Shown piece by piece: positions 6,799-7,054 of a stretch of DNA of 64,000 nucleotides. The stretch lies in the NCBI RefSeq assembly GCF_058153355.1, contig NZ_CM177019.1; one strand, written 5' to 3'. Made by a program: the position numbers and the translations under genes. The notes beneath the pieces are model-generated. The model was not told the origin of the DNA. It did not search any database and worked only from the letters and a program-made list of their open reading frames with translations. How positions within the stretch are numbered: position 1 is the stretch's first letter; every line of letters begins with the position of its first letter.

Positions 6799-6858
6799 AG
6801 AAAGACGAAGGCCCCGACCGATATTTCTATCAACCGAGGCCAACGAATGAACCTAGCA
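6799..6858 (-). ncRNA. sokB: SokB antisense RNA (antitoxin of hokB); ends approximate
   Basis: antisense to mokB start region; candidate promoter TTGCCG-N17-TAACAT on minus strand inside mokB 5' end; hairpin and U-rich tail; coordinates inferred. Confidence 0.35.
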
Positions 6859-7014
6859 ATTCAGATGTTAGCCTCTTACCCGCCATCCGGCAAGGAGAAA
6901 GGCTATGAAGCACAACCCTCTGGTGGTGTGTCTGCTCATTATCTGTATTACGATTCTGACATTCACACTCCTGACCCGACAAACGCTCTACGAACTGCGG
7001 TTCCGGGACGGTGA
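6847..7014 (+). CDS. mokB: regulatory peptide MokB (overlaps hokB; translation coupled)
   Basis: 55-codon ORF MNLAIQMLASYPPSGKEKGYEAQPSGG... translated by hand; overlaps hokB in another frame as in hok/mok loci. Confidence 0.7.
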   Translation: MNLAIQMLASYPPSGKEKGYEAQPSGGVSAHYLYYDSDIHTPDPTNALRTAVPGR

Positions 7015-7054
7015 TAAGGAGGTGGCGGCGCTCATGGCCTGCACGTCCAGGTAA
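6905..7054 (+). CDS. hokB: type I toxin HokB (small membrane peptide)
   Basis: 49-codon ORF MKHNPLVVCLLIICITILTFTLLTRQTLYELRFRDGDKEVAALMACTSR, below the ORF-track cutoff, translated by hand. Confidence 0.9.
   Translation: MKHNPLVVCLLIICITILTFTLLTRQTLYELRFRDGDKEVAALMACTSR

Follow-up and report, generated by a model that had tools for sequence, protein, structure and literature searches.

The hokB/sokB pair is a textbook chromosomal type I toxin-antitoxin system, tied to persistence and to A-to-I editing of bacterial mRNA. In a window of 64,000 nucleotides (contig NZ_CM177019.1 of assembly GCF_058153355.1), a first-pass annotation had placed a hokB/mokB/sokB locus at 6799..7054, on a stretch where the ORF track instead reported a 76-aa ORF on the opposite strand. 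The question that this locus raises is whether the stretch holds an intact toxin-antitoxin system, a decayed remnant of one, or a different gene on the antisense strand. Sequence identity, open reading frames, family matches, predicted folds and the covariation of the tac and fbi elements were established directly, and we conclude that what the window holds is almost certainly the chromosomal hokB/mokB/sokB type I toxin-antitoxin locus of Escherichia coli and, judged from its sequence, an apparently complete one (Table 1). This is an already known, ordinary chromosomal locus, and our analysis confirms the first-pass annotation without adding a novel element.

Table 1. Features of the hokB/mokB/sokB locus and its surroundings (window positions; approximate values marked ~)
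Feature	Position	Strand	Remarks
Candidate hokB -35 box TTTTCG	6724..6729	+	Weak, uncertain
Putative hokB -10 box TAGGAT	6747..6752	+	Aligned with Hok-family boxes
Full-length hokB mRNA (predicted)	6759..~7120	+	~362 nt; 5' end by homology, 3' end by T-run after fbi
tac element GGGTGCCTGAGA	6759..6770	+	Predicted to pair with fbi (full-length fold) or ucb (3'-truncated fold)
ucb / anti-SD box AGGCCCCG	6809..6816	+	Predicted to pair with mokB SD (full-length) or tac (truncated)
mokB Shine-Dalgarno (SD) GAGG	6836..6839	+	7 nt ahead of mokB ATG, read from the sequence
mokB reading frame	6847..7014	+	55 codons; overlaps hokB in another frame
dcb GCCTC	6871..6875	+	Predicted to pair with mokB SD in truncated fold; Rfam consensus structure agrees
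hokB Shine-Dalgarno AAGGAG	6892..6897	+	7 nt ahead of hokB ATG, read from the sequence
hokB toxin gene	6905..7054	+	49 aa, MKHNPLVVCLLIICITILTFTLLTRQTLYELRFRDGDKEVAALMACTSR; ORF listing and family matches
Small hairpin CGC-UCUACGAACU-GCG	6984..6999	+	Predicted in consensus fold, columns 226-241
GC-rich stem-loop GCGCGGGGATTTTCCCCGCGC	7061..7081	+	Putative last stem-loop of 3'-processed hokB mRNA
fbi (fold-back inhibitory) element TCTCATGGCACCC	7103..7115	+	Followed by T-run 7117..7120
sokB promoter (putative)	6893..6865	-	-35 TTGCCG (6893..6888), 17-nt spacer, -10 TAACAT (6870..6865)
sokB antisense RNA gene	6857..6801	-	57 nt; transferred from NC_000913.3 1492119..1492175
SokB terminator hairpin	6841..6810	-	Terminator scan: 14 pairs, 7 G-C; T-rich tail TTCGTCTTTC
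76-aa antisense ORF	6830..7060	-	TTG start; non-coding shadow of hokB, outside the system
ydcA	7126..7299	-	Beside RydC
cybB	about 7544..8074	-	Beside RydC

The whole window is of E. coli chromosomal origin, and no complete genome in the collection exceeds ~98% identity to its first 24 kb. Aligned with the annotated hokB, mokB and sokB of K-12 MG1655 (b4428, b1420 and b4429, respectively; NC_000913.3 1491922..1492175), the interval 6693..7135 showed 98% DNA identity and no indels, and therefore every K-12 coordinate could be transferred to the window (window position = 6847 + (1492129 - K-12 coordinate)). The gene order trg - hokB - ydcA - rydC - cybB is identical to that of K-12, where the MG1655 record annotates hokB, mokB, sokB, yncP, ydcA, rydC and cybB in the same order adjoining trg. 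This neighborhood, together with a HokB protein identical to the annotated one, bears out the identification made in the first pass. Both the syntenic position and the identity with K-12 HokB mark the gene as the hokB orthologue, as distinct from hokA, hokC, hokD, hokE and plasmid hok; the HokA equivalog model gave HokB 38.7 bits, below its cut-off of 89. A 431-nt query around the locus found a match in 5,415 of 5,426 complete E. coli genomes, with HokB as the PGAP label. We found nothing in the sequence that contradicts the hokB/mokB/sokB reading.

Several small RNA genes lie elsewhere in the window. The RydC gene (Rfam RF00505, 90.5 bits) is at 7470..7533 (+), between ydcA and cybB as in K-12. 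An Rfam scan at gathering thresholds also detected the genes for MicC at 40982..41102 (-), FnrS at 48064..48181 (-) and McaS at 51558..51653 (+). The MicC and FnrS genes are separated here by ~7 kb. On the K-12 map, the Rac prophage sits between these two genes; the spacing seen here would suggest that Rac is absent from the window strain.

The 49-aa Hok-family frame is present in the ORF listing where the first-pass annotation had translated it, and its product scored far above the family cut-offs: 83 bits against Pfam HOK_GEF (PF01848; E = 1.1e-23, cut-off 22) and 100.8 bits against the NCBIfam Hok subfamily (NF007279; cut-off 73). The coding sequence differs from that of K-12 at three nucleotides, all synonymous, and therefore the protein is identical to K-12 HokB. 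Its cysteines are Cys9, Cys14 and Cys46, and it bears the marks of the Hok/Gef family, namely an N-terminal hydrophobic segment (residues 6-23, LVVCLLIICITILTFTLL, read from the translation) and the conserved Cys14 and Cys46, the importance of which has been described (PMC12214031, PMC11951105). Unlike most family members, which have a DNA-encoded cysteine at position 29, HokB has a tyrosine there, and the cysteine is supplied by RNA editing: TadA-dependent A-to-I editing of hokB A1491986 changes Tyr29 to Cys and raises toxicity (PMC12214031). This base (NC_000913.3) corresponds to A6990 of the window and falls within a UACG motif (6989..6992) that is located in the loop of the predicted hairpin 6984..6999 and is invariant across Escherichia orthologues.

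We compared the coding frames in about 7-8 Escherichia orthologues. In hokB, variable sites at codon positions 1/2/3 numbered 6/3/17, and 16 variable codons were synonymous only versus 6 that changed the amino acid. The 55-codon mokB frame of the first-pass annotation is likewise present in the ORF listing, in a frame different from that of hokB; as expected of a mok-type overlapping frame, it begins upstream of hokB and terminates inside it. Although mokB is open with a common stop in all 7 orthologues, its variable sites were distributed 15/7/3, with 4 synonymous-only versus 19 amino-acid-changing codons. An open frame with a constant stop and an unconserved product is what would be expected if the translation of mokB, rather than its product, matters. 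We rejected MokB as a conserved protein, as it has no family match and evolves like a non-coding frame despite being open. The codon-position pattern shows purifying selection on the hokB frame only.

The same comparison bears on the opposite strand. If the 76-aa antisense ORF or another antisense small ORF were the real gene, the hokB and mokB frames would be incidental; the 76-aa frame is in fact open in all 7 Escherichia orthologues compared, and in K-12 one small antisense protein in the vicinity is documented, namely YncP, which overlaps the 3' end of hokB. We regard this explanation as extremely improbable. The 76-aa ORF has no Pfam family match, whereas the HokB frame has strong ones. 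Its variable sites are distributed 20/5/9, with 21 amino-acid-changing versus 6 synonymous-only codons, and the peak at codon position 1, mirroring position 3 of hokB, is characteristic of a frame that lies antisense to a real gene. In 5 of the 7 orthologues an Arg or Trp codon stands in place of its TTG start, and even the yncP ATG reads CTG in the window. The first-pass annotation had called the ORF spurious, a judgment with which the substitution pattern, the unconserved start and the absent family match all agree; as a conserved protein it was rejected, evolving like a non-coding frame.

In K-12, the 22-aa product of yncP is encoded antisense to the 3' end and 3' UTR of hokB, and the equivalent of yncP in the window is at 7032..7100 (-). 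The start site (7098..7100) reads 'cag' on the plus strand of the window versus 'cat', so that the start codon is CTG in the window and its closest relative versus ATG in K-12 and all other Escherichia orthologues compared. In strain R32_14_1F, a CDS at the yncP coordinates is still annotated by PGAP.

The first-pass annotation located the locus correctly and gave it too short an extent, as the mRNA would run from ~6759 to ~7120. We aligned ~55 Hok-family loci that had been gathered by one DNA-pattern scan of species-representative genomes. The hexamer TAGGAT aligns with TATGAT, TATAAT or TATACT boxes of these loci, 6-7 nt before the conserved mRNA 5' end, GG(G)YGCYUGAG. It is also invariant in 8 Escherichia orthologues, whereas the flanking upstream DNA diverges. 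Given this conserved -10 box and 5' end, the locus starts ~40-50 nt upstream of the first-pass start. Estimated in the same way, mRNA lengths in the Hok family are 343-396 nt. Both the hokB and sokB promoters are weak matches to the consensus, and the hokB -35 box is a weak candidate.

The leader of this mRNA is recognizable as a family of its own. Rfam RF01794 matched the plus strand at 6759..6910 with 114 bits (gathering threshold 59, E = 1e-26), over the full length of the model (positions 1-157) and 152 nt of the window, starting at the mRNA 5' end and reaching the hokB ATG. This family is named 'sok antitoxin (CssrC)'; because the match lies on the mRNA strand across the whole leader, what it recognizes here is the conserved hok leader, with the SokB target inside it. 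We rejected the reading of the match as the 57-nt antisense RNA itself. Across Escherichia species the leader (6759..6904) hardly varies, less than synonymous sites do, and the DNA upstream of it diverges. Such conservation fits selection that acts both on the structure of the RNA and on the antisense gene.

The 3' part of the mRNA called for a revision of roles. The first-pass annotation had described a hairpin at 7060..7085 as a candidate fold-back or terminator element. The hairpin exists, at 7061..7081, with a stem that is conserved and a loop that is variable across Escherichia orthologues; the assigned roles did not stand. As a fold-back element it was rejected because the mRNA 5' end pairs with 7103..7115 instead, and as a terminator because it lacks a U-tract and was not called in the terminator scan. 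In the truncated hok mRNA of plasmid R1, the 3' stem-loop protects against 3'-5' exoRNases (PMC9841398), and by analogy the most likely role of the hairpin is to protect the processed mRNA as its 3' stem-loop, at which trimming would stop.

The predicted fold of 6759..7120 has a minimum free energy of -139.9 kcal/mol (z = -4.6 versus shuffles) and pairs the first 12 nt with 7103..7115, a duplex of -21.3 kcal/mol. A complement of the first 11-12 nt of the mRNA was found in all 55 Hok-family loci, 41-58 nt after the hok stop, and the mean tac/fbi duplex energy was -17.6 kcal/mol within the same locus versus -13.9 kcal/mol across loci. RNAalifold detected a compensatory change from U4-A to C4-G in hokB orthologues of other Escherichia species. 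In a MAFFT alignment that was made blind to structure from 42 distinct family members, the 6-bp core was 98% paired; one core pair was C-G in 23 loci and U-A in 17, and 23 cells showed double changes. None of 500 shuffles reached 98% pairing, and slid registers gave 35-63%. The pairing is thus supported by covariation and is the tac/fbi interaction of the published R1 model (PMC9841398); R1 has GGCGCUU at its 5' end versus GGGUGCC here, with a matching change in fbi.

Two alternative conformations are predicted for the 5' end. In the full-length molecule, both the minimum-free-energy and consensus folds have tac paired with fbi and the mokB SD paired with ucb. In the fold predicted for 6759..7083, which lacks fbi, tac would pair with ucb and the mokB SD with dcb, in agreement with the Rfam consensus structure. 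Both predicted conformations reproduce the R1 model of PMC9841398.

On the minus strand, the K-12 sokB gene transfers to a position over the mokB initiation region, where promoter hexamers and a terminator hairpin can be read from the sequence, as expected of the antisense gene. SokB is predicted to fold into a 14-bp hairpin preceded by a single-stranded 5' tail (-22.2 kcal/mol, z = -3.7), and the RNA complements the mokB SD and start codon without a mismatch. The hexamers TTGCCG-N17-TAACAT noted in the first pass are present within the 5' part of mokB; the description 'near-consensus' did not hold, since they agree with the consensus at 8 of 12 positions. They were not called in a 9-of-12 promoter scan, and sites with 8 of 12 matches occurred 5 times in 6500..7350, within the spread of the 4.0 +/- 2.2 obtained for random sequence and hence not above chance. 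We rejected the promoter as significant by itself, given this random rate. What argues for it is its conservation and its position relative to the annotated sokB start, which upon transfer from K-12 lies 7 nt downstream of the -10 box TAACAT. In published work that sets out the organization of the locus, sokB controls the translation of mokB, on which hokB translation depends (PMC5812544), and CRISPRi knockdown of sokB caused a growth defect (bioRxiv 10.1101/2020.03.04.975888).

These elements suggest a course of events that we model, by homology, on hok/sok of plasmid R1 and on published K-12 hokB work. A weak promoter would give rise to a stable full-length mRNA in which the 5' tac is paired with the 3' fbi and ucb masks the mokB SD, so that the molecule could be neither translated nor bound by SokB. 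Slow 3' exonucleolytic trimming would then take off fbi and halt at the GC-rich stem-loop, whereupon the 5' end would refold, tac with ucb and the mokB SD with dcb, opening the mokB translation initiation region. SokB, transcribed from TTGCCG-N17-TAACAT, would bind the mokB SD and start, block the translation of mokB and the coupled translation of hokB, and tag the paired RNAs for RNase III. If SokB runs low or hokB is induced, as by Obg/(p)ppGpp in K-12, HokB would be produced, and this membrane peptide would form pores, leading to depolarization, leakage of ATP and persister cells; TadA editing at A6990 would increase its toxicity further. Pore formation by HokB and the induction of hokB and persistence through Obg/(p)ppGpp are described in PMC11951105, and Hok toxicity, Sok repression, RNase III cleavage and 3' processing in the literature on R1 hok/sok and K-12 hokB (PMC5812544, PMC9841398, PMC11951105, bioRxiv 10.1101/2020.03.04.975888). 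For the window strain, we infer the transcript ends (transferred by homology), processing, SokB action and toxicity from these relatives.

In its architecture, the locus resembles hok/mok/sok (parB) of R1, the prototype of the family: both have a toxin ORF, an overlapping mok frame and an antisense RNA on the mok initiation region, share the tac/fbi, ucb and dcb elements, and match the same Rfam and Pfam families. Unlike the plasmid-borne R1 system, the locus of the window is chromosomal, and its role is therefore not post-segregational killing. As a discovery the locus carries little weight, and its value lies in annotation. A cut-off of 60 aa for ORFs misses the 49-aa toxin, the overlapping leader ORF and the 57-nt antisense RNA, and reports a 76-aa shadow ORF in their place; the corrected anatomy (mRNA 6759..7120, fbi 7103..7115 and 3' stem-loop 7061..7081) is directly usable for strain annotation.

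A hokB locus with an intact toxin frame may nevertheless have lost its regulation or expression and persist as a non-functional remnant. Inactivation is frequent among chromosomal hok loci and has been proposed for several in K-12. In 611 of 5,426 complete E. coli genomes, the hokB locus is interrupted by IS150 at a point 15 nt upstream of the mokB ATG, and in other strains deletions have removed the mokB start or the hokB 5' part; the weakness of the hokB and sokB promoters would be in line with decay as well. Pedersen and Gerdes are said to have suggested in 1999 that the K-12 hokB system is impaired by a point mutation, and therefore the regulatory competence of any given allele is not guaranteed. 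On the other hand, hokB has been treated in a later paper as the one active chromosomal hok (PMC12214031). We consider decay very improbable for the window, where the locus is free of IS elements, deletions and frame disruptions, every regulatory box is present, and the predicted folds are those of the R1 model. The near-invariant leader, set against diverging upstream DNA and synonymous sites, and the purifying selection on the hokB frame also argue against it, as does G at 6867, which is the state of the other Escherichia orthologues compared and not the K-12-specific C. The preferred reading is still that of an apparently complete hokB/mokB/sokB locus.

How this allele relates to that of K-12 is a narrower question. 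The two share the chromosomal position, the HokB protein, the length and stop of mokB, and the tac, ucb, dcb and fbi sequences. Apart from the three synonymous changes in the CDS, they differ in the sokB -10 box, which is TAACAT here and TAAGAT in K-12; the underlying change at 6867, a base that belongs to the sokB -10 box, is proximal to dcb and is G here and in all other Escherichia orthologues compared, also alters MokB Met7 to Ile. Three further differences lie in the 3' UTR, one of them turning the antisense yncP ATG into CTG. Finally, three of the four bases at 6754..6757, between the hokB -10 box and the mRNA start, are different. Because of G6867, the changed segment between -10 box and start, and the loss of the yncP ATG on the opposite strand, the allele might be regulated differently from that of K-12 and could represent the fully functional wild type, the laboratory strain being the impaired one. 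We think this unlikely; if true, it would amount to a quantitative difference in a known system and not to a new kind of element.

The bases at 6754..6757 form the only cluster of differences from K-12, with CTCA here versus CCTG there. They are also variable among Escherichia species, and could affect promoter strength or stringent control.

Natural lesions of the locus were observed in other strains. In E. coli ST131 strain 2017_APHA (L003:2105-3510), IS150 adjoins the hokB locus with a junction corresponding to window position 6832. The element takes the place of the hokB promoter, tac and ucb as well as the SokB terminator; trg, too, has lost its 5' part to deletion. This exact junction is the one found in the 611 genomes mentioned above, and in the open-access literature we found no paper mentioning hokB together with IS150. 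In E. coli 1532WA (L004:601-991), a 15-bp deletion and divergence over the equivalent of 6836..6866 have removed the mokB start and the SokB 5' end, and in E. coli AHB19 (L005:2501-2602) a deletion takes away the hokB 5' part together with trg sequence. Escherichia whittamii carries a tandem duplication of hokB (L040:925-1286 and L040:1422-1783), and one of the copies has lost a tac/fbi pair through a G-to-A change in fbi and is without the usual T-run context.

Some matches of the family-wide scan fell outside enterobacteria or in unexpected assemblies. The 19-base hok leader pattern also matched eight Bradyrhizobium loci (L009, L010, L013, L023, L024, L049, L062 and L072), in each of which a conserved hairpin with an SD (AGCCTCTTACCGCGCCTGCGGCAAGGAGG) precedes a conserved unrelated gene. 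We rejected these as hok loci, since no Hok-like ORF follows the pattern, and judged the resemblance to be coincidental and inherited within the genus. Two short contigs, contig164 of Streptomyces morookaense (L011) and a contig of an Oscillibacter MAG (L017), encode one and the same Hok protein, which differs by a single residue from that of an Escherichia albertii contig (L007); these contigs probably reflect contamination of the two assemblies with enterobacterial DNA.
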